64,000 bases of DNA from the NCBI GenBank assembly GCA_003446775.1, contig DMCH01000158.1:21650-85649 (forward strand), in the 5' to 3' direction. A model generated the notes under the pieces. The model did not search any database. It had not been told where the DNA came from and saw nothing but the letters and a program-made list of their open reading frames with translations. Shown in pieces: positions 7,873-28,289 of this stretch. Made by a program: the position numbers and the translations under genes. Source of the stretch: Chloroflexota bacterium (lineage in GTDB: Bacteria > Chloroflexota > Dormibacteria > Dormibacterales > Dormibacteraceae). Each line of letters starts with the position of its first letter. Positions within the stretch are counted from its first letter, which is position 1.

Positions 7873-7904
7873 GACGAAAGTCTATCTGCCTCGCACCGGC
7901 CGAT

Positions 7905-9191
7905 ATGATCCGTCGCGTCACGATGGCGCAGCTCACCAAAGACGTCTCCGAATCGCCCCTCCTGGGCTACAGCCGATGGGCGCTCGCGGTCAATGTCGGC
8001 GCGATGTTCTCGTACGTCTGGCGCTTCAAGGTAGGGCCGGTACCCACCAATGTCCTCGAGATCCTGGTCCTCGCGACTATCGCGCTCTACATAGCGGGGC
8101 GGCTCCAAACAGGACCCTGGCGACCCCCACGCACGGGACTCGAGATCCCGACCGCTCTTCTATTGATTGCCGGCCTCGTCGCCATCGCCGTGTCGCCCAA
8201 CCACGTCGGCGCGCTCGGCTTCTATCGCGCGTACTTCATCGAGCCCGTCATCCTGTTCTACGTCGCGATCGATCTGCTGCGCACGCCGCAGCACTTCCGC
8301 ATCGTGCTGCTCGGCCTGGCGGCTGGTTCCAGTCTCTTCGCGATTCTCAATCTCGGCGCATGGGCGATCGCATTGTTGAGCCACCAGCCGATCGCGACCG
8401 CCAACGCGCCGGAGGCTCTTTACACAAGCCCCAATTCCGTCGCGATCTTCCTCGAGGCCCCTTTTGCGATTGCAGCCGGCTACGTCCTCTATTCGGATGA
8501 CCGGCGAGAGCGCTGGATCGCCGCCGCGTGCTTGGTGTTCCTGCTGGCCGCCCTGCTGTTGACGCTTTCGAGGGCGGCCTGGCTGACCCTCGCGGCGCTC
8601 GCCCTGGTGGCTGTCATCACGATGCCGAACCTGAGGGTGAAGCTCGCGCTCCTCGGCGGCGCGCTGATCGGCGGATTCGCGGTGGCACAGATCCCCTTTG
8701 TCCACCAGCGGCTCGCCCGGCAGCTGGACTTCAGCTTCAAGGACAACACATTCGAGGGCCGGGTGCAGATCTGGAGTGACACGCTCCGCATGCTGCGCGA
8801 CCGCCCGATCTTCGGCACCGGCCTGCGCGGATACGAGAGGGTAATGACGCCCTACATGACGGGGAACCGGCTCCCGGAGCTGTATCCGCACAATCTGTTT
8901 CTCGCCATGTGGGCCGAGCTCGGCCTGCTCGGCCTGCTCGCGTTCGTCATTCTCCTGGCCATGCTCCTCTGGCGAGGATGGCGAGGCTTCTATCGAGCGA
9001 ATGGCTTCGCCCGGCCGCTGCTGTGGGGCACCTCGGCTGCCTTCGTTGCAGTGGCCGTCCACGGTATGTTCGACACGCCTTACTACAACAACGACATCTC
9101 TCTGGAGTTCTGGATCGTGGCCGCGCTGGAAGTCGCGGCGCTGCGCATGATGACCGCCGATGCGACCAGAAACCAGGACTTCGCGCGTTGA
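7905..9191 (+). CDS. Wzy_C-domain polytopic membrane protein (O-antigen ligase / polymerase / O-oligosaccharyltransferase family)
   Basis: Multi-TM protein. LTLSRAAWLTLAALALV and IFGTGLRGYERV...YPHNLFLAMWAELGLLGLLAFV fit the Wzy_C signature. The track start GTG 7866 would overlap the ilvD start, so ATG 7905 or 7923 is more likely. Confidence 0.75.
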   Translation: MIRRVTMAQLTKDVSESPLLGYSRWALAVNVGAMFSYVWRFKVGPVPTNVLEILVLATIALYIAGRLQTGPWRPPRTGLEIPTALLLIAGLVAIAVSPNHVGALGFYRAYFIEPVILFYVAIDLLRTPQHFRIVLLGLAAGSSLFAILNLGAWAIALLSHQPIATANAPEALYTSPNSVAIFLEAPFAIAAGYVLYSDDRRERWIAAACLVFLLAALLLTLSRAAWLTLAALALVAVITMPNLRVKLALLGGALIGGFAVAQIPFVHQRLARQLDFSFKDNTFEGRVQIWSDTLRMLRDRPIFGTGLRGYERVMTPYMTGNRLPELYPHNLFLAMWAELGLLGLLAFVILLAMLLWRGWRGFYRANGFARPLLWGTSAAFVAVAVHGMFDTPYYNNDISLEFWIVAALEVAALRMMTADATRNQDFAR

Positions 9192-9201
9192 GCTAGCCAG
9201 A

Positions 9202-11859
9202 GTGAAGGGACTGCGACTCGCGGGCACCGCTGCCGTGAGCTTGCTTTTCAGCGGGATTGTGGTCGTGCAGGCAGCCCCTGCCACACATGCCGTCATCCCT
9301 TTCACGGCCCAACCCAAAGCGGCGGCTGTCGTCCCTAACGGCAGCTGGCCCGTGTACCACCATGACAACGCGCACACGGGCTACGACGGCACCCAACCAA
9401 CCTCGTCAACAGCGACCACCGGGTGGGTCAGCGGGACGATGGATGCTCCGGTCTACGGCTCACCGCTGGTCTACGGCGGAATCGTCTACTCGGCCACCCT
9501 CAACAACACCGTTTACGCGTTCAACCAGGCCGACGGGTCGACCCTGTGGAGCAGGAACCTCGGAGCGCCCACGACCACCGGCTGGAACTGCGGCAACGTC
9601 TCCTTTCAGGGAATCCTGGGCACGCCGGTCATCGACACGGCCGCAGGCCGGATCTACGTCGCCGCCCTGGGATCGGATCACGTCTACCGCGTGTTCGGCC
9701 TAGGCCTTGCCTCCGGAGCAACCCAACTCACTACCGCTATCCCAACCACCATCGGTGACGGGACCTTCGACTGGACGATTCAGCAGCAGCGCGGCGCCCT
9801 TGGACTCGCCAACGGCTTCGTCTACGTTCCCTTCGGAGGGCGGTGGGGCGACTGCGGCAGCTACCACGGTTGGGTGGTCGGGGTGCCCACGAATGGCGGC
9901 ACGACGCCCGCGGTCTATGAGACGCCCTCAACGGGATCAGGCATCTGGGCGGCTGGAGGGGTGGTCACCGACGACGCCACCGGCAACGTCTTCTTCGCCA
10001 CCGGGAATGCGATGCCCCGCTCCTCTTGCCCCACCGCGGTCAACAGCGACTCCGTGATCCGGACCGGCCCGGCACTCGGCACGGCGACATCCTTCTTCCA
10101 GCCGCAGGACTGGCTGGCCAACTGGTGCGACACCGACACGGACCTGGGCTCGGCCAGCCCCACGCTCATCAGCCCCAGCCTCGCCTTCATGTCCGGCAAG
10201 TACGGCCAGGGCTTCCTGCTCGACCCTACAAACCTTGGTGGCACGAATGGGCAGATCTTCCCTGCCCGCTCACCTTATGCCGGCGCCGACGTATGCGTGG
10301 GCAACCACAACGACGCAACCTTCGGGTCCTTCGCCTATGCCGCTCCCTACATCTACCTTTCCTGCCAGAGCCAGGGCATCGTGGGCCTCAAGGTCGACAC
10401 CACGGCAAAAACCTTCAGCCTCTGCGACGCCACCTGCGCAGCTCCTTCATGGAATTCGGGCGCCGGCAAGGTTTACGGCCCGCCGATCGTCGCGGGCGGC
10501 ATCGTGTGGGCGGTCGATACCAACGGCTCCGGGCTCACCGGGTTCGATGCGGCCACGGGCACCTCCGTCTTCCAGAGCGGCACTTTCCCGGCCCACAATT
10601 TTTCGACCCCGAGCGAGGCGGGCGGGCAGGTCTTCGTCGGGTCGGACACAGTCATACGTTCGTTCAACCTGGTGGTCAACGTTTGCCCGTCCGTGACTGC
10701 GTCCGCGGCGCCGGCCTCACCGCAGACGTCGGGCACGCCGGTAACCGTCACCGCCGTCGCCTCTGGCTGCCCCAACCCGCGATACGAGTTCTGGATCCTG
10801 CCCCCGGCAGGTAGCTGGACTATCGCGCAGCCGTACTCCAGCACCGCCACTTACAACTGGAACACCACCGGACTGGCCGCGGGCACTTACAGCTACTCCG
10901 TCTGGGTCCGCGACGCCAGCAGCGCGGCAAGCTACGACTCTTTCTTCCCTGGCACGGCGTACACGCTCACGACGACGGCCTGCAACTCTGTGACCGCCTC
11001 GGCGGCGCCGGCCTCCCCGCAAACCGTCGGCACGCCCGTCACCATCACCGCCAGCGCCTCGGGCTGCACCGCGCGCTACGAGTTCTGGATCCTGCCCCCC
11101 GGAGGCAGCTGGGCGATCGCGCAGCCCTACTCCGGCACCGCGACATTCAACTGGACCACCACCGGACTCCCGGCCGGCACCTATAACTACTCGGTCTGGG
11201 CACGTGACAACGCCAGCGCGGCCGCGTATGACACGTACTTCCCAGGTACCGCGTATGTCCTTACGTCCGCGGCCTGTTCGTCGGTGACCGCCTCGGCCGC
11301 GCCGGCCTCCCCGCAATCGGCAGGCACCCCCGTCACCATCACCGCCACCGCCTCGGGCTGCCCCAACGCGCGCTACGAGTTCTGGATCCTTCCTCCGGGA
11401 GGCAGTTGGACGATCATGCAGGCCTATTCCGCCAGCGCGACGTTCAACTGGAATACCACCCCGACCGCCGGCGTCTACCGATACTCGGTCTGGGTCCGCG
11501 ATAACAGCAGCGCTGCCGCCTACGACACGTACTTCCCCGGCACCACGTACACGCTGACGACCACGCCCTGCACGTCGGTGACGGCCTCCGCGGCGCCGGC
11601 CTCTCCGCAGGCGCATGGCACGACGGTCACGATCACAGCCAGCGCCTCGGGCTGCACCAATCCGCGCTACGAATTCTGGATCCTGGCTCCAGGAGGCAGC
11701 TGGGCAATTGCTCAGGCCTACTCCAGCACCGCGACGTTCAGCTGGAACACGACTGGGCTGGCCGCGGGCGTCTATCGCTACTCGGTGTGGGCCCGTGACG
11801 CCAGCAGCGGCGCCGGCTACGACACTTACTTCCCCGGTACCGCGTACACGCTGACCTGA
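9202..11859 (+). CDS. Secreted PQQ-like beta-propeller protein with four C-terminal two-Cys repeats
   Basis: Track ORF 9160..11859. GTG 9202 avoids overlap with the upstream gene, but ATG 9160 is possible. Signal-like GLRLAGTAAVSLLFSGIVVVQAAPA. Propeller repeats include VYGSPLVYGGIVYSATLNNTVYAFNQADGSTLWSRNLG. Repeats start at 10684. Confidence 0.8.
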   Translation: MKGLRLAGTAAVSLLFSGIVVVQAAPATHAVIPFTAQPKAAAVVPNGSWPVYHHDNAHTGYDGTQPTSSTATTGWVSGTMDAPVYGSPLVYGGIVYSATLNNTVYAFNQADGSTLWSRNLGAPTTTGWNCGNVSFQGILGTPVIDTAAGRIYVAALGSDHVYRVFGLGLASGATQLTTAIPTTIGDGTFDWTIQQQRGALGLANGFVYVPFGGRWGDCGSYHGWVVGVPTNGGTTPAVYETPSTGSGIWAAGGVVTDDATGNVFFATGNAMPRSSCPTAVNSDSVIRTGPALGTATSFFQPQDWLANWCDTDTDLGSASPTLISPSLAFMSGKYGQGFLLDPTNLGGTNGQIFPARSPYAGADVCVGNHNDATFGSFAYAAPYIYLSCQSQGIVGLKVDTTAKTFSLCDATCAAPSWNSGAGKVYGPPIVAGGIVWAVDTNGSGLTGFDAATGTSVFQSGTFPAHNFSTPSEAGGQVFVGSDTVIRSFNLVVNVCPSVTASAAPASPQTSGTPVTVTAVASGCPNPRYEFWILPPAGSWTIAQPYSSTATYNWNTTGLAAGTYSYSVWVRDASSAASYDSFFPGTAYTLTTTACNSVTASAAPASPQTVGTPVTITASASGCTARYEFWILPPGGSWAIAQPYSGTATFNWTTTGLPAGTYNYSVWARDNASAAAYDTYFPGTAYVLTSAACSSVTASAAPASPQSAGTPVTITATASGCPNARYEFWILPPGGSWTIMQAYSASATFNWNTTPTAGVYRYSVWVRDNSSAAAYDTYFPGTTYTLTTTPCTSVTASAAPASPQAHGTTVTITASASGCTNPRYEFWILAPGGSWAIAQAYSSTATFSWNTTGLAAGVYRYSVWARDASSGAGYDTYFPGTAYTLT
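10684..11856 (+). repeat. Coding tandem array, 4 units
   Basis: TTCTGGATCC (codons F-W-I-L) recurs at 10789, 11083, 11380 and 11674, giving a period of 294-297 nt. Confidence 0.9.
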
Positions 11860-11864
11860 GCTTG

Positions 11865-12004
11865 CCTCACCACTTGTGGGGAGGTCGGACCCTGGGCTCC
11901 CCACCATGTGGGGAGCTCCCCCGCGAAGCGGGGGTGAGGGGAGATACGGGACCATGTCGGCAGGCCGCGAAGCGGGCGCGTCCGGGTAGGGAGTCGCACT
12001 AACC
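11865..12004 (+). repeat. Family-A palindromic element, long multi-hairpin copy
   Basis: Hairpins at 11865-11884 (CCTCACCACTTGTGGGGAGG), 11896-11916 (GCTCCCCACCATGTGGGGAGC) and 11918-11934 (CCCCCGCGAAGCGGGGG). Ends GGGAGTCGCACTAACC. Its termini match the inverted copy at 2022-2087 and its core matches 55655-55708. Confidence 0.7.
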
Positions 12005-12033
12005 CGTGCGGAAACTTAGAACGGCAAGCGCCC

Positions 12034-15000
12034 GTGCCTGAACCAGGTTCCTCCAGCGTGCGCGTCGCAGTGTTGGCAGCCATCTCAGCGCTGGCGCTGC
12101 TGACGCCGCTGCCGGCTCCAGCCGCGCCCCAGGTCGCTCCCCTGGCCGCCCACGCCGCGCTGCCCTCGGACCGGCTGCATTTCGGACTCGCCAACGGCCC
12201 GGGCACCGAGTTCAACTGGATGGTCGCGACTGGGATCCCCTGGCACTATCGCTACCAGTACCTTGCCGGCGGCATCAACACGGGCGGCGTCGCGGGCGAC
12301 CCTTGCGGCGCCAACGCGGGCTGGCAGACCTGGAATTCGCCCGCCGGTCAGTTCGTGACCGACTACATCACCGCCAGCGTCGCGCAGAAGGCCATCCCGG
12401 TGTTCACCTACTACGAGATCGTGCAGTCGAACCCGTCGCCGGGCAGCGAAAGCGCCGAGCTCACGAAGATCTCGACTGTCTGCACGATGCAGGCCTACTG
12501 GGCCGACTTCACGGCCCTGATGCAGAAGGTGGGCGCGTCGGGAGCGCAGGTCGTGGTGCACGTCGAGCCCGACTTCTGGGGATTCATGGAACACCAGAAT
12601 CCGGATCCCACACTTCTTCCAGCGGTCGTTGCGAGCTCAGGCAACGCCGACTTGGCCGGGTTGCCGAACACAGTGGCGGGGATGGGTCTCGCGTTCTTGA
12701 GGCTGCGCGACAAATACGCCCCGAACGCCCTGCTCGCCATCCACGCGAGCAGCTGGGCTAGCGGCGTCGACATCGCGACCGACCAGCGCACCACAATCGA
12801 CCCGGCCGCCGAAGCCGACGCGGTGATCGCGTTCCTCAACAAGGCGGGACTGGTCGGCAATCCCGCCGGCATTACGCCATGGGACGTGATCTTCAACGAC
12901 GTGGCCGACCACGACGCGGCTTGGTACGGGGCGCTGTCCAACGTCCATTGGTGGGATCGCAACAACGCAGTCTTCCCGAACTTCACGCGCTGGCTCGCGT
13001 TCATGAGCCGTATGCACACCGACACGGCATTGCCGCTGATCGAATGGCAGGTGCCTGTGGGCAACCAGTACTTCGACACCATGAACAACACCGACGGCCA
13101 CTACCAGGACAACCGCGCCGAGTACTTCCTCGCGCACCCGGGCCAGCTCACCGCGGCCGGCATCGTCGCGGTGCTCTTCGGCAAAGCCAACGCGGGCCAG
13201 ACCAACTACTGGGACGAGAAAGGCGACGGCATCACCAACCCGGCGCCGGTGAATTCGTGGCAGTGCAACCTCTGCAACAACCACACGTCGACGGTCGCTG
13301 ACGACGACGGTGGGTTCTTGCATATGGCGGTCGGCGCTTACTACCGAACATTCCCCGGCACGAGCTGCAACCTGTTTCCGAGCGACAGCGTCTTCAACAC
13401 CGACATCTCCTCGCTCCCGGTGAACACGCAGAGCCAAACGTGGATGGGCAACATGGCGCAGAACGCAAACCTGCACGCGGACATGGGCACGTTTGCGCAG
13501 TGGTATGGAATGCCGGTTAACGTTGCCCCGCCTCCCACCACGGGCGTGACGCCCACCTTCCTCTATAACTCGGACAGCGACCACCCGGCCGAGGGCTACC
13601 CAATCGATCAGAGCACGTTGATAGAAGGCGGGCCGAGCGCGCCCTCGACCAGCGACCGGCACGCGCTCGTCATCAACAAGAACCTCTGCAAGCTCTACGA
13701 GATCTTCAACCTGCAGAACTTCACCAACGGCCAGACGCCGTCCGCCGGTTCAGGCGCGACATGGGACCTGAGCTCGAATGCGATGCGGCCGAATGGCTTC
13801 ACTTCCGCGGACGCCGCCGGCCTGCCCATTACGCCACTGCTGCTCCGGCCCGACGAGATCCAGGCCGGCACCATCGCGCACGCGATCCGTTTCACCGCGC
13901 ACTGCACGAGCACTTATATCTGGCCCGCCTCGCACCAGGCCGGCTCGTGCAGCTCGGCCTTCCCGCCGATGGGCGCGCGGTTCCGGCTGCGGTCGAACTA
14001 CAACATCTCGAGCTTCTCGCCCACCACGCAGGCTGTGTTGCGCGCGTTCCAGCACTACGGCCTGGTCCTCGCCGACAACGGATCGGACTGGTTTTTCTCC
14101 GGGACCACCGATGACTGGTGGGGTACCGCGGCGGGCAGCCAGGTGATCAGCGAGCTGAAGACGATCCCGGCGGCGCAGTTCGACGCCATCGACGAATCAG
14201 GTCTTCAAGCGGCGGCCGGCTCGTACCAGGCGGGCCCCTACACGGCACCACGCTGCGCGACGGCGGCGATGAGCGCGGCTCCTTCATCGCCACAGTCCGC
14301 GGGCGCCACGGTGGTGGTAACCGCCTCGACCTCAGGCTGCCCCAACCCCCTGTACGAGTTCTGGCTCCTCGCCCCCGGGTCGAGCACCTGGACTGTGGCG
14401 CAGGCGTACTCCACTGCCGGCACCTTCAACTGGAACACCAGCGGCTCGGCCGCAGGCACCTATTACATCTCTGTGTGGATTCGCGACGCTGGCAGCGCCA
14501 ACAGTTACGACGCCTACTTCCCGGGTGCCCCGTACACGCTGACCTCGACCGGCTGCGCGTCAGTGACCGCCTCCGCGGCGCCCGCCTCCCCGCAAACAGC
14601 CGGCACGCCCGTCACCATCACGGCCACTGCCTCAGGCTGCAAGGCGCGCTACGAGTTCTGGATCCTGCCCCCTGGAGGCAGCTGGACGATCGTTCAGGCC
14701 TACTCCAGCACGGCTACTTTCGGCTGGACTACCACCGGACTCGCGGCCGGCACCTATCGCTATTCGGTCTGGGTCCGCGACGCCGCCAGCGCAGCGAGCT
14801 ATGACGCCTACTTCCCCGGCACCGCCTACGCGCTCACCTCTACGTCCACACCTTGCACAGCAGTGACCGCCTCCGCGGCGCCGGCCTCCCCGCAATCAGC
14901 GGGCGCCGTCGTCACCATCACCGCCAGCGCCTCGGGCTGCGCCAACGCGCGTTACGAGTTCTGGATCCTGGCCCCCGGGGGTAGCTGGACCATGGCTCAG

Positions 15001-15438: not shown

Positions 15439-15470
15439 GTTCGGAAGCGATGGCTTGACCTCGGTAAGGA

Positions 15471-15503
15471 GCCGCCGGCATTTGCCGGCGGCGCTTTCAT
15501 TTT
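15471..15503 (+). terminator. Rho-independent terminator
   Basis: GCCGCCGGC-ATTT-GCCGGCGGC stem-loop followed by GCTTTCATTTT, 33 nt after the stop at 15438. Confidence 0.7.
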
Positions 15504-15604
15504 GCCGGTGCGCGCGGAGCCCGCGGAGCTAGACGAACCAGGTCCTCCGGACGTTCGGAAGGCAAGATCGCCGGGCCCCTGGCCGTTGGGCTAGGGTGTC
15601 GCCC

Positions 15605-18265: not shown

Positions 18266-18282
18266 GTGGCCAAAGGCAACTC

Positions 18283-18331
18283 ACGCCCCTCTCCTACCCT
18301 CTCCCCGGGGGAGAGGGAGACTGATCTGAAG
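18283..18331 (+). repeat. Family-B palindromic element
   Basis: ACGCCCCTCTCCTACCCTCTCCCCGGGGGAGAGGGAGACTGATCTGAAG. Hairpin CCCTCTCC/GGAGAGGG at 18297-18317. Related copies at 29484-29543 and 32913-32954. Confidence 0.65.
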
Positions 18332-18345
18332 TAGACTCCCGCGCG

Positions 18346-21300
18346 GTGGGGTCATTGACAGGGGTCGCGCGCGCCACGTTATACGCGGGTGCGATTGCGC
18401 TCGTAATCGCTTCGGGTTTGGTCGGATCCAAAGACCACGTTCTCGCGCAAGCCACCGGCAAAGACGTCCCCGCATCCGGGACGGCGCAAGTGATACCGGT
18501 GCCTGCAAAACACGCTACCGCCCGGAAGCAGAGTCCAGCCGCGCCGGCGAATCAGCCGCTGCGGACCCTTGATCCGGTGAAGCTGCAGAAGGCAAAGACA
18601 GCCGCCAACGATCGCGCGGCCGCGGCTCAGCTGGGACTAAGCCCAGTCGCCTCACCTGCAGGCCAACCGTATGGCGTGTACAGCGGCGTCAACCGCCCAG
18701 GCCTCTCCGCGAGCGGATGTTGTAGTCCGTCCGACTCCACCGGCGCCGTCGGGCCCACCAACTACGTGCAGATGGTCAACAGCGCCATCGAGCAGCTACC
18801 CGTCCACGTACTTGCAGGGAACGCCAGCGCGTTGGACCTCGGCACGTTTGGCGCTTTCAACGCCACGGATTGCACGTACGACCCTCAGATCGCCTGGGAC
18901 GAACAGGGAGGGCGCTGGCTGTATTCGTTTCTCGACCAGGTTTCGTCGACGGGGAGCGGCTGCGCTTCCATCAGCAGCAACTACTTGGCCTTTGGCTGGT
19001 CGAAGACGAGCGATGCGAGCGATCTGGTCAACGGCTGGTGCGGTTTCCTGCTCATCACCGGCAGCGACCTTTTCGATTACCCCAAGCTCGGTCACGACAA
19101 CAACTTCATCAGCGTCGGCGCCAACGTTTACGCCAACTCAGGCGGAGGCGCGTTCACGACATCGGTCATCGTGGCGATCCCGAAACCGGCCCGCGCGGAT
19201 ACATCGTGCACCGTGCCCCCTCCCCCGACGTACTTTGGTTCCCCGGCCACGCCACTGCGGAACGCGGACAACACGGTCGCGTTCACCCCGGTGCCCGCGG
19301 ACACCGCCGACAGTTCGCCCTTGGGCTACGTCGTCGCATCTCATTTCCCGGGTACCGGGACGGCCACCAGACTCATGGTTTGGCACCTCAGCTCGAATGC
19401 CGGCACACCTGTCCTCACCGCAGACGGTGACGTGACCGTCGCCGGCTACGCTGTGCCTCCCGCGATTCCGCAGCCGGCCACCGGCACTACTTCGTGCTCG
19501 ACTGCCGGCAACTGCCTCGACTCCAATGATGGGCGGCTGACACAAGCGGTTGCTCATTTCGATCCCGATGCCGGTAAGGAAACCATCTGGACCCAGCACG
19601 CGATCGCCGACGCCGCCGTCGGAACGCTTTCCGTCGAACGCTGGTACGAACTGATTCCCGGGCAGAACACCCTGCGGCAATCGGGGAACGTGAGCGACAC
19701 CACCCTCCACATCTTCAATGGCGCCATCTCCCCCAGCTCGGCCGGCAACGAAGCGGTGATGTATTACAACGCCGGCAACGGCTCCGCCGGTGGCTTCGCA
19801 AGCTTCCGCGCCAAGAGCCGCAATTCTTCGACTCCTCTTGGGACCGTGACGAATGAAACCATCCTCGCCAGCGACGCGATCAACGACAACGACCTAAGCT
19901 GCGGCGTGAACCGCCGGCCGGTGGACCTCACGCTGCCGTGTCGTTGGGGCGACTACGCCGCGGCCAGGCCGGATCCGCTCGACGCGAACGCGGTCTGGGG
20001 CACCAGCATGCTGACCGGCACTGGCGGGACTAGCACGACCGCCGGGTGGAGAACGGCGATCGCCGCCTACACAAACGGCTGCCCGTGGACTGTCCTCAGC
20101 CCCCACTCCTCGAGCGCAATCACCGGGTCGACCAATCAGTTCACGGCCACATCGATGGGCTGCAGCAACCCGGAATACGAGTTCTTCGTAGGTCCCTCAA
20201 CAGGGAACGGACCCTGGACCCTGAAGCAGGCGTTCAGCGCCAGCAACACCTGGACCTGGGACACGTCCGGCTATTCGGCCGGTGACTACGACGTCCAGGT
20301 CTGGGCCAATCAGACCGGCGACTCGACCGCGAACTGGGAGGCGATGAATATCGCCAACATCACGCTGACGCAGTCGCCGCCCTGCACGGCCGTGACCGCC
20401 TCCGCGACGCCGGCCTCGCCGTCGTTGCCGGGGACGGCCGTCACCGTCACCGCCAGCGCCTCGGGCTGCCCCAACCCCCGCTACCAGTTCTGGATCCTGG
20501 CTCCTGGCTCGAGCACCTGGACGATTGCGCAGGCCTACTCCGCCAGCGCCACATTCAACTGGAACACGACGGCACAAGCAGCCGGCACCTACCAATTCTC
20601 GGTCTGGGCCCGCGACGCGGGCAGCGCGGCCGCCTATGACACTTACGTCCCCGGGTTCCCATACACGCTGAGGTCCGCGGCCTGCACATCGGTGACCGCC
20701 TCGGCGGCGCCGGCTTCCCCGCAGTTGCCGGGTACCGCCGTCACCATCACCGCCAGCGCCTCGGGTTGTCCCAACGCGCGCTACCAGTTCTGGATCCTGG
20801 CCCCTGGGTCGAGCACCTGGACGATTGCGCAGGCCTACTCAGCCAGCGCCACATTCAACTGGACCACGACCGGATTAGCAGCCGGTACCTACCAGTTCTC
20901 GGTCTGGGCCCGCGACGCCAGCAGCGCAGCCAGCTATGACACGTACGTCCCCGGGTTTCCATACACGCTGACGACCACGGCCTGCACCTCGGTGACCGCC
21001 TCGGCGGCGCCAGCTTCCCCGCAGGTGGCGGGTACCGCCGTCACCATCACCGCCAGCGCCTTGGGCTGTCCCAACGCGCGCTACCAGTTCTGGATCCTGG
21101 CCCCAGGGGGCAGCTGGACGATTGCGCAGGCCTACTCAGCCAGCGCCACATTCAACTGGACCACGACCGGACTCGCAGCCGGCACTTACAGCTACTCGGT
21201 CTGGGTCCGCGACGCCAGCAGCGCGGCGAGCTATGACGCGTTCTTGCCTGGCACCGCGTACAAGCTGACATCCACGGCCTGCACGTCGGTGACCGCCTCC

Positions 21301-21870
21301 GCGGCGCCGGCTTCCCCACAAGCGGTGGGCACCGCCGTCACCATCAGCGCCAGCGCCTCGGGCTGCCCCAACGCGCGCTACCAGTTCTGGATCCTGGCCC
21401 CCGGGGGCAGTTGGAAGATTGCGCAGGCCTATTCCAGCAGCGCGACATTCAACTGGACCACGACCGGACTCGCCGCCGGCACCTACACCTACTCGGTCTG
21501 GGTCCGCGACGCCAGCAGCGCGGCGGCCTACGACGCTTTCTCACCCGGCACCGCGTACACGCTCACGACCACGCCCTGCGCGTCGCTGACCGCCTCCGCG
21601 GCGCCGGCCTCCCCACAGGTGCATGGCACCACAGTCACCATCACCGCCAGCGCCTCGGGCTGCCCCAACCCCCAATACGAGTTCTGGATCCTCGCTCCTG
21701 GCTCGAGCACCTGGACGATGGTGCAGGGCTACTCCAGCAATGGCACATTCATCTGGAACACGACCGGACTTGCTGCCGGTACATACAAGTTCTCGGTCTG
21801 GGTCCGCGACGCCAGCAGCGGGGCCGGCTACGACGCTTACTTCCCCGGCGCCACCTACACGCTGACCTGA
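18346..21870 (+). CDS. Secreted protein with a large unknown (possibly sialidase-like propeller) N-terminal domain and six C-terminal two-Cys repeats
   Basis: GTG 18346. TM/signal-like ATLYAGAIALVIASGLVG. The N-domain contains FDYPKLGHDNNFISVGANVY and CRWGDYAAARPDPLDANAVWG. The first repeat (from 20080) is divergent (GCPWTVLSPHSS...CSNPEYEFFVG). The next four use RYQFWILAP. Confidence 0.75.
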   Translation: MGSLTGVARATLYAGAIALVIASGLVGSKDHVLAQATGKDVPASGTAQVIPVPAKHATARKQSPAAPANQPLRTLDPVKLQKAKTAANDRAAAAQLGLSPVASPAGQPYGVYSGVNRPGLSASGCCSPSDSTGAVGPTNYVQMVNSAIEQLPVHVLAGNASALDLGTFGAFNATDCTYDPQIAWDEQGGRWLYSFLDQVSSTGSGCASISSNYLAFGWSKTSDASDLVNGWCGFLLITGSDLFDYPKLGHDNNFISVGANVYANSGGGAFTTSVIVAIPKPARADTSCTVPPPPTYFGSPATPLRNADNTVAFTPVPADTADSSPLGYVVASHFPGTGTATRLMVWHLSSNAGTPVLTADGDVTVAGYAVPPAIPQPATGTTSCSTAGNCLDSNDGRLTQAVAHFDPDAGKETIWTQHAIADAAVGTLSVERWYELIPGQNTLRQSGNVSDTTLHIFNGAISPSSAGNEAVMYYNAGNGSAGGFASFRAKSRNSSTPLGTVTNETILASDAINDNDLSCGVNRRPVDLTLPCRWGDYAAARPDPLDANAVWGTSMLTGTGGTSTTAGWRTAIAAYTNGCPWTVLSPHSSSAITGSTNQFTATSMGCSNPEYEFFVGPSTGNGPWTLKQAFSASNTWTWDTSGYSAGDYDVQVWANQTGDSTANWEAMNIANITLTQSPPCTAVTASATPASPSLPGTAVTVTASASGCPNPRYQFWILAPGSSTWTIAQAYSASATFNWNTTAQAAGTYQFSVWARDAGSAAAYDTYVPGFPYTLRSAACTSVTASAAPASPQLPGTAVTITASASGCPNARYQFWILAPGSSTWTIAQAYSASATFNWTTTGLAAGTYQFSVWARDASSAASYDTYVPGFPYTLTTTACTSVTASAAPASPQVAGTAVTITASALGCPNARYQFWILAPGGSWTIAQAYSASATFNWTTTGLAAGTYSYSVWVRDASSAASYDAFLPGTAYKLTSTACTSVTASAAPASPQAVGTAVTISASASGCPNARYQFWILAPGGSWKIAQAYSSSATFNWTTTGLAAGTYTYSVWVRDASSAAAYDAFSPGTAYTLTTTPCASLTASAAPASPQVHGTTVTITASASGCPNPQYEFWILAPGSSTWTMVQGYSSNGTFIWNTTGLAAGTYKFSVWVRDASSGAGYDAYFPGATYTLT
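20080..21867 (+). repeat. Coding tandem array, 6 units
   Basis: Read from the translation; the last unit is of the PQVHGTTVTITASASGCPNPQYEFWILAP type. Confidence 0.9.
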
Positions 21871-21901
21871 AGTCGCGGCGCACGTCGTGTCCCTTCAAGC
21901 C

Positions 21902-21930
21902 TTGAACACGCTCTGATGAAGACCTAGTAT
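21902..21930 (+). promoter_or_regulatory. Putative sigma70-type promoter, TTGAAC-17-TAGTAT
   Basis: TTGAAC at 21902-21907, 17-nt spacer, TAGTAT at 21925-21930. Lies 10 nt before GTG 21941 and 43 nt before ATG 21974. Confidence 0.4.
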
Positions 21931-21940
21931 CTAGCTGCCG

Positions 21941-24900
21941 GTGGGAGGGCGATTGGGGCGGGGCTTCGCGGTGATGGCTGCAATCAGCCTGTTTATGAGC
22001 CTGTCCATCTCGGTACTGGGCGTCTCTGCCGCCACCCCGAAGCCGCCGGTTCCAAGCTCGGCTGGGTCTCAATCTTCGAGCCCGAGCGTTGAGGGCGATC
22101 CGACTGGGACTCGACAGGCAAAGCCGCGAACAGCATCCCCGCGGCAGCTCAGTCCCGCTCTGACAACCGGGGGGAGCTGGAGCTGGCAGAATCCCAAGCC
22201 CAACGGCAATCTTCTTACCGCGATCAGCTGCCCGGCCGCAAGCACCTGCTTTGCCGCCGGACAGGACAGCCCGATTCTCACAACTGTCAACGGGGGCTCC
22301 ACGTGGAGCCAGCAGGTCCGCGCCGCGGGCGTCAACAGCATCAGCTGCACAAGCACCACTTTCTGTGTCGCCGTCGGAGACTTCGGCCTCGTCATGACCA
22401 CCGCGGACGCGGGGAGCCACTGGGCCGCCCAGACCGTCAACGGCGGCAACTTCCTCGCCGGTGTGAGCTGCCCGACCGCCTCGGTCTGCTTCAGCGTCGG
22501 ATACGCAGGCTCCATCCTGTACAGCGGCAACGGCGGGAGCACCTGGACGGCGCAGGCCTCAGGCACAACAGCGAATCTGTTTGGGATCAACTGTCCGAGC
22601 GTGTCGATCTGCTATGCGGTCGGCGCGGGCGGAGTCATCACAGGGACGGCGAACGGGGGAACCACCTGGAGTGTTGAGTCGTCGACGACAAGCCTGGTGC
22701 TCCTTGCGATCTCATGCCCGAGCATCACCACCTGTGCCGCCGTGGGCGCCATTGGAACGATAGTCTCCACCACTACCGGCGGCACCACCTGGTCGTTGAT
22801 AGGCTCGGAAACCCGCGCCAACCTGTTTGGCATCAGCTGTCCGAGCACCAGCCTGTGCTTCAGTGCCGGAGACGACGGCGAAGTGCATGTCGGTTTCTCA
22901 GTGATCTCCGGAAATGCCTCGGTCGGCGCCGACGGCGGCCTGTGGGCGATCAGCTGTCCGACCGCCACTGAATGCCTGACCGCTGGCGATTTCGGAACCG
23001 TGGCGGTGACGACCAACGGCGGCAGTGGCTGGAGTCTGCAGCTTCAGGGCCTCGCAGGCCCTGTGTCAGGCATGAGCTGCCCGAGCACGACAACGTGTTT
23101 TGCTTTTGATCAGGGGACGATCTTGGGCACCACCGATGGAGGATCGACGTGGCCGCAGCTGTTCACGAGCACCCTGATCTATTTCAATTCCATCAGCTGC
23201 CCAACCACGAGCGTCTGCTTTGCCGCAGGTCTGCCGTACTTCAACAACGCGATGCTGTATGCGACGACGGACGCCGGCAAGACGTGGAATCCGGAGCTTT
23301 ACCCGAACCCGCTCGTTGGACAGGAACACCTGACCAGCATCAGCTGCGCGACCACTACGAACTGCGTTGCGGTGGATTCCTCGAATACCATCGGAACGAC
23401 GACCGATACCATCACAAGGACGACCGACGGGGTCCATTGGAGCTCCCCTACGTTCGGTCCGTGCTTTGGTCAGTGCCCCGGTCTCATCGCGGTCAGCTGC
23501 CCCACGGCAAGTGTCTGCTTTCTCATAACAACTGCGGTCCCGGGCCAGGTCTGGTCCTCGGTCGACGGCGGCACGAATTGGGTAGTCAGTTTCGATGTTG
23601 CCAATGATCCGCAGGCCGTAAGCACAGGGGGCTTCTCTGCCATCAGCTGCCCGAGCGCCACTGTCTGCTATGCGGTCGGGCCCGGACCGGCGTCGCCTGG
23701 CCCTGGTGGTGTTTACGCCACCACGACTGACGGAGGCGTCACGTGGAGAACAGACAACGGACCGTCCTCCACAAGCGTGACCGGCATCAGCTGCCCGAGC
23801 GTCAGCACATGCTATGTCTCAGCAACCGGTGCCTCGATATTCCACACGGCCGACTACGGAGGTACGTGGGACGTTCAGCTTGGCAATACCAATGCTTGGT
23901 ATTTTTCGGTCAGTTGCCCCACCACGACTGTGTGTTTTGCCGGCGGTAGTGGCGGTGCTGCCGGCGGGATCATTAGCGCTACCACCACCGCGGGAGCAGC
24001 CTGGACGCGACCGAAGCCGGCCGGATCCACCAACAGCATCTTTGGGGTTAGTTGCGGCAGCTCGAGCGACTGCTATGCAGCCGCGCTCAACAACATCCTT
24101 GTTTCGCACAACGGCGGGTCCACGTGGGCCACGCAAACGCTCACGACCGGCGACCAGGTTGTAGGGATGAAATGCGCTTCCGCGACCACGTGTTACGCGG
24201 TCGGGTGGCCGGGCGCCATTTACAAGACCATCGACTCTGGGACCACGTGGACCTATCAAGCGAATCCGCTGTCGGGCGCGGACACGACGTTGCTCGGGGT
24301 GAGCTGTTGGAGTCTCAGCGCATGCGTGGCGGTGGGCACAGATGGCGATGTCCTTTCGACCAGCGACGGGACCGCGTGGGGACTCGAAAATTCCACAACC
24401 TTCAACAACCTCTATGGCGTCAGCTGCCCCAGCAGCTCCACATGTGTCGCAGTCGGCACCAACGGTACGGCGCTGACGCGAACCGGCAATTCGTGGCACG
24501 CCGACCCGAGCGGCACCACGAGCTCCCTCGCCGGAGTCAGCTGCCCAAGCGCCGCTTCCTGCTACGCGGTCGGACAGACGGGCACGGTACTCATGACCAA
24601 CAACCAGGGTTCCAGCTGGACTGCGCAAAGCTCGGGTGTCACCAACGTCTTGACCGGCATTGGCTGCGTTCGCACTTATTTTTGCCTGGCTTCTGGCACC
24701 CTCGGCACCGCCCTCGTCACGCTCGATGGAAGTCACTGGAGCGCGCTTGCCACGCCAACAATCAACACCCTCCTCGGGGTCGCCATGCCTGACCCGAACC
24801 ATGCGTGGCTGGTAGGTAACGGCGGAACCATCCTCGCTAACGCGAGCCTCTTTCCCTGGACGTGCACCGCGGTGACCGAGTCTGCGGCACCGCCGTCGCA

Positions 24901-26068
24901 AGCGGCATCGGGCACCTCCGTCGTCTTCACCGCCAGCGCCTCGAACTGCCCGAACCCGCTGTACCAGTTCTGGATCCTTGCCCCCGGGGGCACCTGGACG
25001 GTCGCGCAGGCCTACTCCACCACCGCCACACTCAACTGGAACACCACCGGCCTGGCCGCCGGCACCTACTACGTCTCAGTCTGGGTCCGCGACGCCAGCA
25101 GCGCGGGCGCCTACAGCAGCAGCTCGGGCACCTATGACGCTTATGCCCCTGGTGTCGCATACACACTCACGACCACGGCCTGCACCTCGGTGACCGCCTC
25201 GGCGGCGCCGCCCTCGCCGTCAGTGCCGGGCACGGCAATCACCATCACCGGCAGTGCCTCCGGCTGTCCCAACCCGCGCTACGAGTTCTGGATCCTGGCT
25301 CCCGGCTCGAGCACCTGGACGATTGTTCAGGCCTACTCCAGCAGCGCCGCATTCAACTGGACCACGACCGGACTGGCAGCCGGCACCTACCACTTCTCGG
25401 TCTGGGCCCGCGACGCCAGCAGCGCGGCCGCCTATGACACTTACGTCCCCGGCTTCCCATACATGCTGACGTCCACAGCCTGCACGGCGGTCACCGCCTC
25501 CGCGGCGCCGGCTTCCCCGCAAGTGGCGGGCACTGCCGTCACCATCACCGCCAGCGCCACGGGCTGCGCTAGCGCGCGCTACGAGTTCTGGACCCTGGCC
25601 CCCGGGGGCAGCTGGATGATCGCGCAGGCCTACTCCCCAAGCACCACGTACAGCTGGACCACAACCGGACTGCCCGCCGGCACTTACTACTACTCGGTGT
25701 GGGTCCGCGACGCCGCCAGCGCGGCCGCCTATGACGCTTACTTCCCAGGCACCACCTATGCGCTGACGACCACGCCTTGCACGTCGGCGACCGTGTCTGC
25801 GGCGCCGGCCTCACCGCAGGCACATGGCACCACGATCACCATCAGTGCCAACGCCTCGGGCTGCTCCAACCCGCTCTACGAGTTCTGGATCCTGGCCCCC
25901 GGCGGTAGCTGGACGGTGGTTCGGGCTTACTCCACCACTGCCAGCTTCAGCTGGAACACAACCGGACTGCCGGCCGGCACGTACTACTACTCGGTATGGG
26001 TTCGCGACGCCAGCAGCGCGAGCAGCTACGACGCTTACTTCCCAGGCACCGTCTACGTCCTGGTCTGA
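21941..26068 (+). CDS. Secreted giant Asp-box (BNR/Ycf48-like) multi-propeller protein with Cys-pair blades and four C-terminal two-Cys repeats
   Basis: GTG 21941 (ATG 21974 is possible). Signal-like MAAISLFMSLSISVLGVSAATP. About 20 units of the pattern [IV]SCPSxSxC[YF]AVG...T.[DN]GG.TW. Repeats start at 24863. Confidence 0.8.
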   Translation: MGGRLGRGFAVMAAISLFMSLSISVLGVSAATPKPPVPSSAGSQSSSPSVEGDPTGTRQAKPRTASPRQLSPALTTGGSWSWQNPKPNGNLLTAISCPAASTCFAAGQDSPILTTVNGGSTWSQQVRAAGVNSISCTSTTFCVAVGDFGLVMTTADAGSHWAAQTVNGGNFLAGVSCPTASVCFSVGYAGSILYSGNGGSTWTAQASGTTANLFGINCPSVSICYAVGAGGVITGTANGGTTWSVESSTTSLVLLAISCPSITTCAAVGAIGTIVSTTTGGTTWSLIGSETRANLFGISCPSTSLCFSAGDDGEVHVGFSVISGNASVGADGGLWAISCPTATECLTAGDFGTVAVTTNGGSGWSLQLQGLAGPVSGMSCPSTTTCFAFDQGTILGTTDGGSTWPQLFTSTLIYFNSISCPTTSVCFAAGLPYFNNAMLYATTDAGKTWNPELYPNPLVGQEHLTSISCATTTNCVAVDSSNTIGTTTDTITRTTDGVHWSSPTFGPCFGQCPGLIAVSCPTASVCFLITTAVPGQVWSSVDGGTNWVVSFDVANDPQAVSTGGFSAISCPSATVCYAVGPGPASPGPGGVYATTTDGGVTWRTDNGPSSTSVTGISCPSVSTCYVSATGASIFHTADYGGTWDVQLGNTNAWYFSVSCPTTTVCFAGGSGGAAGGIISATTTAGAAWTRPKPAGSTNSIFGVSCGSSSDCYAAALNNILVSHNGGSTWATQTLTTGDQVVGMKCASATTCYAVGWPGAIYKTIDSGTTWTYQANPLSGADTTLLGVSCWSLSACVAVGTDGDVLSTSDGTAWGLENSTTFNNLYGVSCPSSSTCVAVGTNGTALTRTGNSWHADPSGTTSSLAGVSCPSAASCYAVGQTGTVLMTNNQGSSWTAQSSGVTNVLTGIGCVRTYFCLASGTLGTALVTLDGSHWSALATPTINTLLGVAMPDPNHAWLVGNGGTILANASLFPWTCTAVTESAAPPSQAASGTSVVFTASASNCPNPLYQFWILAPGGTWTVAQAYSTTATLNWNTTGLAAGTYYVSVWVRDASSAGAYSSSSGTYDAYAPGVAYTLTTTACTSVTASAAPPSPSVPGTAITITGSASGCPNPRYEFWILAPGSSTWTIVQAYSSSAAFNWTTTGLAAGTYHFSVWARDASSAAAYDTYVPGFPYMLTSTACTAVTASAAPASPQVAGTAVTITASATGCASARYEFWTLAPGGSWMIAQAYSPSTTYSWTTTGLPAGTYYYSVWVRDAASAAAYDAYFPGTTYALTTTPCTSATVSAAPASPQAHGTTITISANASGCSNPLYEFWILAPGGSWTVVRAYSTTASFSWNTTGLPAGTYYYSVWVRDASSASSYDAYFPGTVYVLV
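24863..26065 (+). repeat. Coding tandem array, 4 units
   Basis: Units start CTAVTESAAPPSQ, CTSVTASAAPPSPS, CTAVTASAAPASPQVAG and CTSATVSAAPASPQAHG. The protein ends YVLV*. Confidence 0.9.
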
Positions 26069-26114
26069 GGTCACAGCGCCCGACTTCGGTTCAATTTGAC
26101 CTGGTAGGCGGCCC

Positions 26115-28289
26115 GTGGGTTACCGTGGGCTGATGCGCAGGCAGCTGGGATGGCTGTGCTTGTTGCCCCCGCTGGCCTCCCTGACCTCAGCTCAAGCCGC
26201 CGCGGCCGGCGTGTCGTTCACCTCAGCGACGCATGCCGCCACGGCGCCACCGCAAGTCCCGCCGTCCGACGCCGCGGCCGCGGCCCCGGCGCTCGCCGCC
26301 GGTTCTGATTACGGGCCGGCGACCTGGGTGCCGGCGAATCCGGCCAACTACAGCTATGGCAACCGCCCGCACGACTACCCGGTGCAAATGATCATCATCC
26401 ACGACACCGAGAGCAGCTACGCCACCGCGATCCAGGATTTCCAGGACCCGACCTGGGCCGCCTCGGCGCACTACATCGTCTCCAACCTCGGAGACATCAC
26501 ACAGATGGTGGCTGAGAAGGACATCGCGTGGCATGCGGGCAACTGGGACTACAACACGCGATCGATCGGGATCGAGCACGAGGGCTACGCGTGGACCTGC
26601 TGCACCTTCACCACGGCCCAGTACGACGCGAGCGCAAAACTCGCGGCATCCATCTGCTCGCGCTGGGGCGTCCCGATGGACCGCACGCACGTGATCGGAC
26701 ACAACGAGGTGCCCGACCCGAACAATCCTGGCCTGTTCGGTGGCAGTGACCACCACACCGATCCAGGGCCGTACTGGAACTGGACGTACTACATGAGCCA
26801 GGCGAATTCCTACGCCAACGCACTCCCAAGTCCGCCGCACATGATGCCCGACCCAGTCGCTGTCTTGAACAGCTCGACGAGCGCGACCGTCACCTGGCAG
26901 CCGGCGCAAAGCTGCCACTCCCCCATCACCAGCTACACGGTGACCGGCCAGCCGGGCAACCTCGTCACGAGCCTTCCGGCAAATGCGACCACGGCGACCT
27001 TCACCGGCCTCCAGCCCGGCGTGACCTACACGTTCACAGTCACCGCCAACAACGCCGTCGGACAGGACACGCTGACCGCGTACTGGCGCTGCACGGTATC
27101 CAGCCTGAGCGCCGCACCCGCCTCGCCCCAGCCATCCGGCTCAACAGTGCCGTTCTCCGGCACATCGGCAGGCTGCCCCAACCCGCTGTACCAGTTCTGG
27201 GTGCTGGCGCCTGGGGGCACCTGGACGGTGGCTCAGGCGTACTCAGGCAGCGCCACTTTTAACTGGAACACCATCGGACTGGTCGCCGGTACCTACTACG
27301 TATCGCTGTGGGCCCGCGACACCACCAGCCCAGGCACGTCCTGCAGCAGCTTGGGCTGCTATGACGCTTTCGTGCCTGGCACCCCGTACTCGCTCACGAG
27401 CACGCCCTGCGGGTCGGTCACCGCTTCGGCGGCACCCGCCTCCCCGTCCCTGGCAGGCACCACCGTCGCATTCACGGGCAGTGCCACGGGCTGCCCGCAC
27501 CCGTTCTACCAGTTCTGGATCTTGGCCCCCGGAGGCAGCTGGACGATCGTGCAGGCCTACTCCACCAATGTCACGTTCAACTGGAACACGACCGGACTCG
27601 CGGCAGGCAGCTACCTCTATTCGGTCTGGGCCCGCGACTCGGGAAGCGCGGCCAGCTACGACAGCTACTTACCTGGCACCGCATACACCCTCACCTCGAC
27701 GTCTTGCACGTCGGCGACCGCGTCGGCGTTGCCGGCGTCTCCGCAAGCTGCAGGCACGCCCGTCACCATCACCGCCGGCGCCTCGGGCTGCCCGAACGCG
27801 CGCTACGAGTTCTGGATTCTTCCTCCAGGAGGCAGCTGGATGATCGTGCAGCCTTATTCGACCAGCGCGACGTTCAACTGGAACACGACTCCGCCGGCGG
27901 GCACCTATCTCTACTCGGTGTGGGTTCGCGATAACAGCAGCGCGGCCGCCTACGACGTTTTTGTTCCTGGCGCCACGTACACGCTGACCTCCACAACGTG
28001 CGCATCAGTGACAGCGTCAGCAGCGCCGGCCACCCCACAAGCGCATGGCACTACGATCACCATCACCGCCAGCGCCTTGGGCTGCCCTAACGCGCGTTAC
28101 GAGTTCTGGATCCTTGCTCCTGGGGGCAGCTGGACAATTGCTCAGGCCTACTCCAGCACCGCCACGTTCAACTGGAACACGACCGGCCTGCCCCCCGGCA
28201 CGTACTTGCACTCGGTCTGGGTCCGCGACGCCAGCAGCGGGGCCAGCTACGACGCCTATCTCCCGGGGACCGCGTACACGCTGACGTGA
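26115..28289 (+). CDS. Secreted N-acetylmuramoyl-L-alanine amidase (amidase_2/PGRP-type) + FN3 with four C-terminal two-Cys repeats
   Basis: GTG 26115 or ATG 26133 (MRRQLGWLCLLPPLASLTSAQAAAAG, signal-like). Amidase_2: MIIIHDTESSYATAI...SAHYIVSNLGDITQMVAEKDIAWHAGNWDYNTRSIGIEHEG...HTDPGPYWNW. FN3: ATVTWQPA...YTVTGQPG...ATFTGLQPGVTYTFTVTANN. Repeats start at 27090. Confidence 0.85.
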   Translation: MGYRGLMRRQLGWLCLLPPLASLTSAQAAAAGVSFTSATHAATAPPQVPPSDAAAAAPALAAGSDYGPATWVPANPANYSYGNRPHDYPVQMIIIHDTESSYATAIQDFQDPTWAASAHYIVSNLGDITQMVAEKDIAWHAGNWDYNTRSIGIEHEGYAWTCCTFTTAQYDASAKLAASICSRWGVPMDRTHVIGHNEVPDPNNPGLFGGSDHHTDPGPYWNWTYYMSQANSYANALPSPPHMMPDPVAVLNSSTSATVTWQPAQSCHSPITSYTVTGQPGNLVTSLPANATTATFTGLQPGVTYTFTVTANNAVGQDTLTAYWRCTVSSLSAAPASPQPSGSTVPFSGTSAGCPNPLYQFWVLAPGGTWTVAQAYSGSATFNWNTIGLVAGTYYVSLWARDTTSPGTSCSSLGCYDAFVPGTPYSLTSTPCGSVTASAAPASPSLAGTTVAFTGSATGCPHPFYQFWILAPGGSWTIVQAYSTNVTFNWNTTGLAAGSYLYSVWARDSGSAASYDSYLPGTAYTLTSTSCTSATASALPASPQAAGTPVTITAGASGCPNARYEFWILPPGGSWMIVQPYSTSATFNWNTTPPAGTYLYSVWVRDNSSAAAYDVFVPGATYTLTSTTCASVTASAAPATPQAHGTTITITASALGCPNARYEFWILAPGGSWTIAQAYSSTATFNWNTTGLPPGTYLHSVWVRDASSGASYDAYLPGTAYTLT
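27090..28286 (+). repeat. Coding tandem array, 4 units
   Basis: Units start CTVSSLSAAPASPQ, CGSVTASAAPASPS, CTSATASALPASPQ and CASVTASAAPATPQAHG. Confidence 0.9.

Follow-up and report, generated by a model that had tools for sequence, protein, structure and literature searches.

A cysteine-paired tandem repeat of Y_Y_Y type on eight predicted exoproteins in a Dormibacterota surface-glycan island

Why would eight proteins with signal-like N-termini and unrelated heads all finish in the same repeat? The question arises from a 64,000-nucleotide stretch of contig DMCH01000158.1 (positions 21,650 to 85,649 of the forward strand; hereafter the window) from a Chloroflexota bacterium of the Dormibacteraceae. 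There, an original prediction made from the sequence alone had picked out eight genes, six head to tail on the + strand (g1 to g6) and two on the - strand (gA and gB), encoding secreted proteins that share a C-terminal stalk of tandem two-cysteine units. Dormibacterota (AD3) are abundant in soils and uncultured, and to our knowledge nothing has been reported on how they build or decorate their envelope. In this study, we find the unit to be, judging from sequence profiles and predicted structure, a divergent Y_Y_Y-type (PF07495) immunoglobulin-like (Ig-like) seven-stranded sandwich. The gene content of the window, in turn, reads over its whole 64 kb as a surface-glycan biosynthesis island in which all eight stalk genes are embedded. 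By analogy with the CWB2 repeats and the PSII glycan of C. difficile, we propose, with a probability of roughly 0.45, that the array is a multivalent surface-retention module binding the glycan of that island.

The unit, its fold and its history

How many copies of the unit are there, and where? A hidden Markov model (HMM) of the unit, searched against a six-frame translation of all 64 kb, returned exactly 40 matches (70-152 bits, E 1e-23 to 1e-48). All of them fall inside the eight open reading frames (ORFs), with nine copies in gA, six in g4, five in g3 and four each in g1, g2, g5, g6 and gB; no copy was found outside these ORFs anywhere in the window. The eight genes and 40 copies first described, in counts of 4, 4, 5, 6, 4, 4, 9 and 4, are thus recovered, and MAFFT yielded the same consensus as the one read earlier. 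The unit measures about 96 amino acids. Tandem Repeats Finder placed its period at 294 or 297 nt in all eight arrays, with 73-86% DNA matches, in line with the 294-297 nt given before, and in every ORF the stop codon follows directly on the last unit, as proposed (0 residues in between; the proteins end in YTLT or YVLV). The gene bounds held as regards the ORFs and needed correction as regards three starts: at 9202, 15605 and 6139 there are start codons internal to ORFs that begin at 9160, 15596 and 6169, respectively. The G+C content of the window lies between 60 and 68%.

What kind of domain is this unit? The likeness to Y_Y_Y suggested by the original prediction is borne out by whole proteins: PF07495, with a gathering cut-off of 26.6 bits, scores 42.1-88.2 bits in seven of the eight and 25.9 bits in gB, and it is present in 46 of 52 sampled wider relatives at E<=1e-5 (best 2e-49). 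Single units remain under the cut-off (18.5 bits for the canonical unit, 23.5 bits for the first unit of gA, or gA u1), and g4 u1, searched alone against Pfam, gave no PF07495 match. Pfam matches to Big_7 were weaker than those to Y_Y_Y. On these scores, the window units form a divergent Y_Y_Y subfamily that is recognised only through its summed copies. The Ig fold that the earlier proposal wished to see tested by structure prediction is indeed the one predicted: given the 40-unit alignment, AlphaFold2 (AF2) models a single unit as seven strands with a predicted local distance difference test (pLDDT) score of 97.5, and two units without an alignment at a pLDDT of 82. Foldseek searches of the PDB with the one- and two-unit models returned Ig, FN3 and antibody folds only among the matches listed (E ~1e-3 for the single unit), and no specific solved Y_Y_Y domain figures among the 50 listed.

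In NCBIfam, the top match of all eight proteins is NF010681, 'triple tyrosine motif-containing protein' (69-131 bits, E 1e-19 to 1e-38; 24.8 bits for one unit). This is an equivalog model (PRK14081) of 667 positions with a cut-off of 842 bits. By their scores the window proteins are not members of it, and have the repeat type alone in common with it; we found no functional literature on NF010681. PDB sequence and profile searches with the unit gave nothing meaningful beyond segments of coronavirus 3C-like proteases. These matches (E ~1e-3 in the PDB; Pfam Peptidase_C30 at 23-52 bits on whole proteins, recurrent across the stalk proteins) cover strand-like stretches of ~46 residues without any fold relation, and were rejected as chance. 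Still, the Peptidase_C30 similarity could mislead automatic annotation.

The cysteines deserve separate treatment. Six positions are invariant across the 40 window units: C1, Y34, F36, W59, G67 and Y69. Counted along the unit itself, the aromatic positions of strands C and F comprise the invariant Y34 and Y69, with F36 in the second position and Y71 common. Both cysteines occur in all 40 units, C29 being shifted one alignment column earlier in gA u1-u4. Among 259 units from related loci, 256 have both, one has a single cysteine and two, from distant Bacillota relatives, have neither; the cysteine number is even in 257 of the 259, as it is in all eight mature window proteins once the signal-peptide cysteines of g6 and gA are set aside. 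The two cysteines behave as one unit, nearly always kept or lost together, which speaks for a probable disulfide and for a location outside the cytoplasm, and the conserved pair is compatible with the bond originally envisaged. In the AF2 strand map Cys 1 lies just ahead of strand A and Cys 29 just past strand B, a placement compatible with an A-B staple, and we infer that a disulfide would join C1 to the loop after strand B. The first units of g5 and g6 also carry a 7-residue insertion. In g6 (27300-27340) this brings a second cysteine pair into the F-G loop (TSCSSLGC), and such a pair is found in 59 of the 259 related units as well, which marks it as a recurrent unit variant with two predicted disulfides. 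Six divergent units, gA u1-u5 and g4 u1, are only 29-40% identical to the canonical unit.

The copies are old and held by purifying selection. Canonical units show a median dS of 0.68, a median dN of 0.19 and a dN/dS of 0.29; despite that dS they are 70-90% identical in amino acids, and the longest DNA tract identical between any two units is 58 nt. Given this dS and such short identical tracts they are not recent copies. A recent amplification or an assembly artefact was rejected on the same grounds, and also because the identical gB protein is present on at least 24 independent metagenome contigs. Last units are more alike among themselves (0.77 identity) than to other units (0.70), a difference reached in none of 2000 permutations. 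Since units keep their position identity between paralogues, the arrays seem to have been duplicated whole, in blocks. This position effect is only partly conserved elsewhere, with 29 of 56 foreign last units best matching a last unit of the window. The last unit was considered as a C-terminal sorting signal, a candidate weakened on three counts: its QAHGTT signature is local to the window genome (His occupies that column in four of 56 last units elsewhere), no more than those 29 of 56 foreign units follow the pattern, and arrays also occur N-terminally.

Export, surroundings and relatives

All eight N-termini display a basic stretch, a hydrophobic segment of 15-20 residues and then small residues, in agreement with the signal-like N-termini noted before, and on this pattern the eight proteins are predicted to be Sec-exported. 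Which known device could hold them at the surface? No TM-like segment lies near the C-terminus of any of the eight; apart from the signal peptides two TM-like windows were seen, both internal to the g5 head. A C-terminal LPXTG is likewise missing from the eight proteins, LP.T[GAS] occurring only internally (g4 694, 794 and 967; g6 519 and 716), with no C-terminal hydrophobic tail, the proteins ending in strand G. Pfam searches (proteins at E<=0.01, units at E<=10) gave no SLH, LysM, CW_binding_1, CW_binding_2, SH3b, GW or PG_binding, and in the eight proteins no PEP-CTERM, T9SS CTD or other CTD family. Thus the proposed lack of SLH, LysM, LPXTG and C-terminal TM anchors stands, and extends to cell-wall-binding (CWB) and SH3b domains. 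No carbohydrate-binding module (CBM) family rose above its cut-off in Pfam either, where X25_BaPul_like (E 0.007) and ZoocinA_TRD (E 0.0017) were sub-threshold, and the unit matched no characterised anchoring or carbohydrate-binding module there.

The heads are as varied as first described, Pfam recognising those of g1, g3, g5, g6, gA and gB (table 1); those of g2 and g4 found no match in Pfam, NCBIfam or among PDB sequences. The g2 head (12034-14253) has orthologues of 47-79% identity in four related loci (L008, L014, L035 and L049), each with the same array. The g4 head (18634-20079) belongs to a large unnamed extracellular family without a Pfam family: a homologue search returned more than 1,281 metagenome homologues, and in other lineages heads of this type are followed by fn3, Big_2 or PKD in place of the Y_Y_Y-type array. 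In g5, the head (22200-24860) consists of 20 repeats of ~41 residues, each with a C-x5-C (C-x7-C in one), and contains 10 Asp-box-like motifs and 42 cysteines. It looks like a multi-propeller of BNR/Ycf48-like type with each blade disulfide-stapled. The PDB matches of the g6 head, which scores 113.8 bits to Amidase_2 in Pfam, are AmpDh2/AmpD.

The glycan island, the strongest clue that the surroundings offer, was overlooked by the original prediction. Pfam and NCBIfam identify two DegT and two Wzy_C genes, a Wzx-type flippase, a PglF/CapD-like UDP-GlcNAc dehydratase and a small Bac_transf phosphoglycosyltransferase, together with GT2, GT4, three epimerases, two UDP-sugar dehydrogenases, two FkbM-type and four SAM methyltransferases, and a split transketolase. 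At least 17 related loci have homologues of the island genes and of IlvD (50-94% identical) beside their stalk genes. In the flanks of non-syntenic loci glycan functions again predominate, with GT4 (five), GT2 (three), epimerases (three), ABC_tran (four), Wzt_C (three) and methyltransferases (seven), the ABC_tran and Wzt_C genes together pointing to an ABC-type glycan exporter.

Are g1 to g6 transcribed together? A single operon of the six + strand genes was considered and found improbable: a strong terminator-like hairpin (15471-15492, + strand; nine G-C pairs and a T-run) lies between g2 and g3, and a promoter scan of 9000-28600 found no sigma-70-like promoter. Because of the hairpin, g1-g6 are probably not one transcript.

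How widely is the array distributed? A scan of species-representative genomes gave 53 loci with 76 unit-bearing ORFs, nearly all in metagenome-assembled genomes (MAGs) labelled Candidatus Dormibacterota or, in older records, 'Chloroflexi bacterium'; distant relatives of 35-41% identity occur in Sulfobacillus and Bacillota. The 76 ORFs have 3-9 units, almost all stop 0-4 residues past the last one, and tandem gene clusters recur. Their heads include GH18 (15), PQQ_2 (eight), fn3 (seven), Amidase_2 (six), phosphoesterase (four) and CAP (three), besides other propellers and a sedolisin pro-domain. The wider sample of 52 has Amidase_3 (two), M23 (two) and RCC1 propellers, and RNase-named fragments are also found among array-bearing proteins. 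Beyond the genome scan, a profile search over 1.84 billion protein-cluster representatives (clusters at 50% identity) sized the family, as the original prediction had advised. It counts 6,246 clusters when E<=1e-3 is applied and 1,488 under E<=1e-30, and a single protein has as many as ~20 units.

The best 150 representatives comprise 76 with a head and a terminal array, 46 with an array only, 17 with the array before another domain and five with an internal array. One related locus (L017, 5092-8556) even encodes the reverse order, with a signal peptide, six units and a g4-type head last. Because its units stand ahead of the head, the array is not obligatorily C-terminal; the strictly C-terminal stalk first claimed is the usual case, from which L017 and the 17 of 150 representatives depart. 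About ten of the array-only proteins have lipoprotein-type signals (L-x-x-C) and 4-17 units (table 1), and presumably come from other phyla.

Some of the related contigs call for comment. Units 57-77% identical to those of the window occur in L002, L005, L006 and L028, from a MAG labelled Candidatus Nitrosopolaris (an archaeon), and units of 52-53% identity in L023 and L029, from a Verrucomicrobiia-labelled MAG; L002 also has an IlvD 92% identical to that of the window. These are most likely mis-binned Dormibacterota contigs. In L003, the DegT is 99.6% identical to the window DegT. The contig of the window is also present in samples ENA ERZ27248650 and JGI 3300001538 and 3300038756. Within the window, four long ORFs (30293-32038, 34409-35623, 37147-38199 (+) and 38196-39092 (-)) gave no Pfam or NCBIfam match, and may be new glycan-pathway genes or spurious ORFs of G+C-rich DNA; the first has orthologues in L001 and L018 (53%).

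Table 1. Stalk genes, neighbouring features of the 64-kb window and array-only relatives
Feature	Position	Strand	Description
gA	2096-6169	-	Signal peptide, GH18 head (DGVNIDYE motif), 9 units; Pfam GH18 62.8 bits, Y_Y_Y 88.2 bits
gA array	2099-4726	-	u1-u5 divergent, u6-u9 canonical
IlvD	6205-7872		Only housekeeping gene identified in the window
Wzy_C membrane protein	7866-9191	+	O-antigen ligase / O-oligosaccharyltransferase / polymerase family; directly upstream of g1; Pfam 92 bits
g1	9160-11859	+	Signal peptide, PQQ_2-type beta-propeller head, 4 units; array 10684-11856
g2	12034-15438	+	Signal peptide, ~700-aa head, 4 units; array 14254-15435
g3	15596-18265	+	RR-containing signal peptide, CAP + IPT/TIG head, 5 units; array 16790-18262
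g4	18346-21870	+	Signal peptide, ~480-aa uncharacterised head, 6 units; array 20080-21867; u1 divergent
g5	21941-26068	+	Signal peptide, BNR/Ycf48-like head, 4 units; array 24863-26065
g6	26115-28289	+	Signal peptide, Amidase_2 (peptidoglycan amidase) + fn3, 4 units; array 27090-28286
Glycan genes between stalk genes	28329-55230		Among them an epimerase, GT4, a split transketolase, a small Bac_transf, both UDP-sugar dehydrogenases, FkbM and SAM methyltransferases
Wzx-type flippase	35638-37128
Second Wzy_C	44850-47366
PglF/CapD-like dehydratase	47435-49375
DegT	51876-52973
gB	55757-58180	-	Signal peptide, GH18 head, 4 units; array 55760-56938
Array-only lipoprotein-type set			P0125, P0140, P0145, P0146, P0156, P0157, P0182, P0184, P0202, P0225

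Surface retention and its rivals

What could one module do for so many heads? Because the linkers that connect the units are short (1-5 residues, three in most cases; Thr-, Ser- and Pro-rich), 4-9 units would form a semi-rigid rod of ~15-35 nm, at an assumed ~4 nm per Ig domain. This lineage fuses the predicted rod, as a portable module, to many unrelated exoproteins. We infer that the repeated units may bind a cell-envelope glycan non-covalently and multivalently, that the surrounding gene island would make this glycan, and that the binding would keep the exoproteins at the cell surface. A surface-holding device is the most likely role of the tail because its genes sit in an island for surface-sugar synthesis. 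More broadly, surface retention ranks first because one module is placed on many exoproteins, no other anchor is seen, the unit is under constraint and its genes are linked to a glycan locus. That constraint suggests, from the unit sequences, more than a spacer needs. Amidase, GH18 and similar heads are typical of wall-associated proteins. As some arrays stand N-terminal of their heads, a binding module fits better than a C-terminal sorting signal. W37, W74 and R/K76, conserved at 88-92%, would take positions on strands C and F that alternate with hydrophobic core positions, and in the modelled fold they would form a plausible binding face.

Several points weigh against surface retention. The Y_Y_Y domain of Bacteroides hybrid sensors, the only one studied, is described as a spacer and dimerisation element and not as a binder of glycan (PMC5121618). 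The roughly ten lipoprotein-type array-only proteins of other lineages are anchored by other means, so that the array there must serve something other than anchoring and must itself be the functional part. Related MAGs may owe their synteny to common descent and not to functional coupling, and the solvent exposure of the Trp and Arg residues is deduced from strand periodicity. Moreover, the organism is uncultured and its envelope undescribed.

The same genes could also be read as a protein O-glycosylation cluster, which we regard as possible and yet unlikely. A Wzy_C-family enzyme would load a lipid-linked glycan onto Ser/Thr of units or linkers, and the arrays would be folded glycoprotein rods of mucin-like character, making up a glycocalyx or bearing the heads. 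In its most explicit form, to which we give the same low credence, the array would be the dedicated acceptor of a general Dormibacterota O-glycosylation, the Wzy_C enzyme encoded beside g1 loading the Ala/Ser/Pro loop or the linkers. The gene in question (7866-9191) abuts g1 and has homologues of 58-69% identity in the stalk-gene loci of four related genomes (L014, L019, L033 and L045), which makes it a candidate functional partner of the stalk proteins. Its weak NCBIfam matches (IctB/TfpM/RfaL) include entries of the expected kind (TfpM O-linking oligosaccharyltransferase, putative O-glycosylation ligase), but all lie far below their cut-offs, and polymerases and lipid/LPS ligases fall under Wzy_C as well. 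Likewise, a Pgl-like set is present (PglF/CapD-like dehydratase, DegT aminotransferases, small Bac_transf, flippase), but a Pfam scan of the island gave no PglL_A or Wzy_C_2 accessory domains. On the acceptor side, the loop between strands A and B is of Ala/Ser/Pro type (SAAPASPQ; P10 80%, S/T12 80%, P13 76%), with a conserved P-x-S-P, and 60% of linker residues are Thr/Ser. PglL-type enzymes glycosylate Ser in low-complexity stretches, for example the AASAP region of AniA (PMC5542605), and their genes often adjoin those of their targets (PMC3643930). The A-B loop may, however, be purely structural, and Ser12 is missing in ~20% of the units. Modification would be expected on SVTASAAPASPQ-type peptides and on linker peptides. 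If true, dozens of exoproteins would ride on disulfide-stapled, heavily glycosylated rods. These would be the bacterial counterpart of mucin-type stalks, and perhaps the chief envelope building block of an uncultured phylum.

Somewhat less likely still, the array may be a passive spacer, stabiliser or oligomeriser that distances or stabilises the heads, or self-associates into a surface layer, and binds no glycan. Such a role has been described for the Y_Y_Y domain of BT4663 (PMC5121618), and it would suit the short linkers, the disulfide staple predicted for each domain, the fn3, Big_2 or PKD tails that g4-type heads carry in other lineages, and the existence of array-only proteins, some with lipoprotein signals. 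Nevertheless, a spacer needs an anchor, and none was found in the eight proteins. Mere spacers usually lack the kind of conservation seen here, which is high in amino acids at a dS of 0.68 and extends to positions with a predicted outward orientation. Nor would this reading account for the link to glycan genes. If spacing were all, the finding would shrink to a routine domain-architecture note. Finally, with as little likelihood, the array might work like a CBM on freely secreted enzymes, aiming them at chitin, foreign peptidoglycan or necromass, in keeping with a scavenging and lytic repertoire of heads (GH18, amidase, M23, phosphoesterase, sedolisin-type protease, RNase-named) and with the 14 aromatics among 96 unit residues; yet CAP, PQQ and BNR propellers, which have no polysaccharide substrate, bear the same array, no CBM family matches, a single module for chitin, peptidoglycan peptide stems and phosphoesters is unlikely, and the surrounding island is biosynthetic, not catabolic.

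Overall, the array gives a concrete handle on surface display in Dormibacterota and a sequence tag from which the surface and exo-proteome of the phylum could be predicted from MAGs. It is also a candidate for a new Ig module that binds or carries glycan.

Comparison with known systems

How much of this is new? The domain family and the retention principle are already known, and tandem Y_Y_Y arrays are tagged by Pfam and NCBIfam. The suggestion that no such long stalk had been described was overstated: we found no literature on the module, but NF010681 models a tandem array, and Pfam tags thousands of metagenome proteins. In the literature on Y_Y_Y or triple tyrosine domains and on the Dormibacterota surface, we found no account of the Cys-stapled subfamily, of a shared exoprotein tail or of the link to a glycan island. 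NF010681 also consists of tandem Y_Y_Y-like units, its cut-off lying far above the scores of the window proteins. An archaeal extracellular multi-domain protease is likewise drawn with a Y_Y_Y domain in its SMART diagram (PMC3958906).

In the hybrid sensors of Bacteroides (BT4663), Y_Y_Y is, as predicted here, an Ig-like all-beta sandwich, and its Y-x-[YF] and G-x-Y-x-[YF] strands appear to be kept in the window units. There it occurs once, placed between a TM helix and the periplasmic Reg_prop propellers (PMC5121618). By contrast, the units described here form tandem arrays of 4-9, as a rule at the very C-terminal end of secreted enzymes, and have a conserved Cys pair and no sensor-type propeller, kinase or TM context. 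Protein glycosylation systems of the PglL/PilO/WsaB kind and the slg clusters also place a Wzy_C-family gene beside secreted proteins with Ala/Ser/Pro-rich segments (PMC3643930), and share with the island Pgl-like sugar-nucleotide genes, a flippase and methyltransferases. Diagnostic PglL domains were not found in the island, and the acceptor would differ in being a loop that recurs in each of 40 folded Ig domains.

In monoderms, terminal arrays of SLH, LysM, GW or choline-binding repeats attach amidases, glycosidases and other proteins non-covalently to wall polymers. The retention logic proposed here is also that of SLH and secondary cell wall polymers (SCWP); the window array has no sequence match to such repeats, and differs from them in its fold, its predicted disulfide staples and its origin in an uncultured phylum. 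In C. difficile, the PSII glycan locus has the Cwp genes directly upstream of it, and the CWB2 repeats of the Cwp proteins bind PSII and are not interchangeable (PMC4973711). CWB2 differs from the present unit in a fold that is not Ig-like and in its three copies, against 4-9 here, where CW_binding_2 finds no match and binding is hypothetical. What the two systems have in common is one repeat carried by many paralogous surface proteins, repeats that are position-specific, and linkage to a glycan locus.

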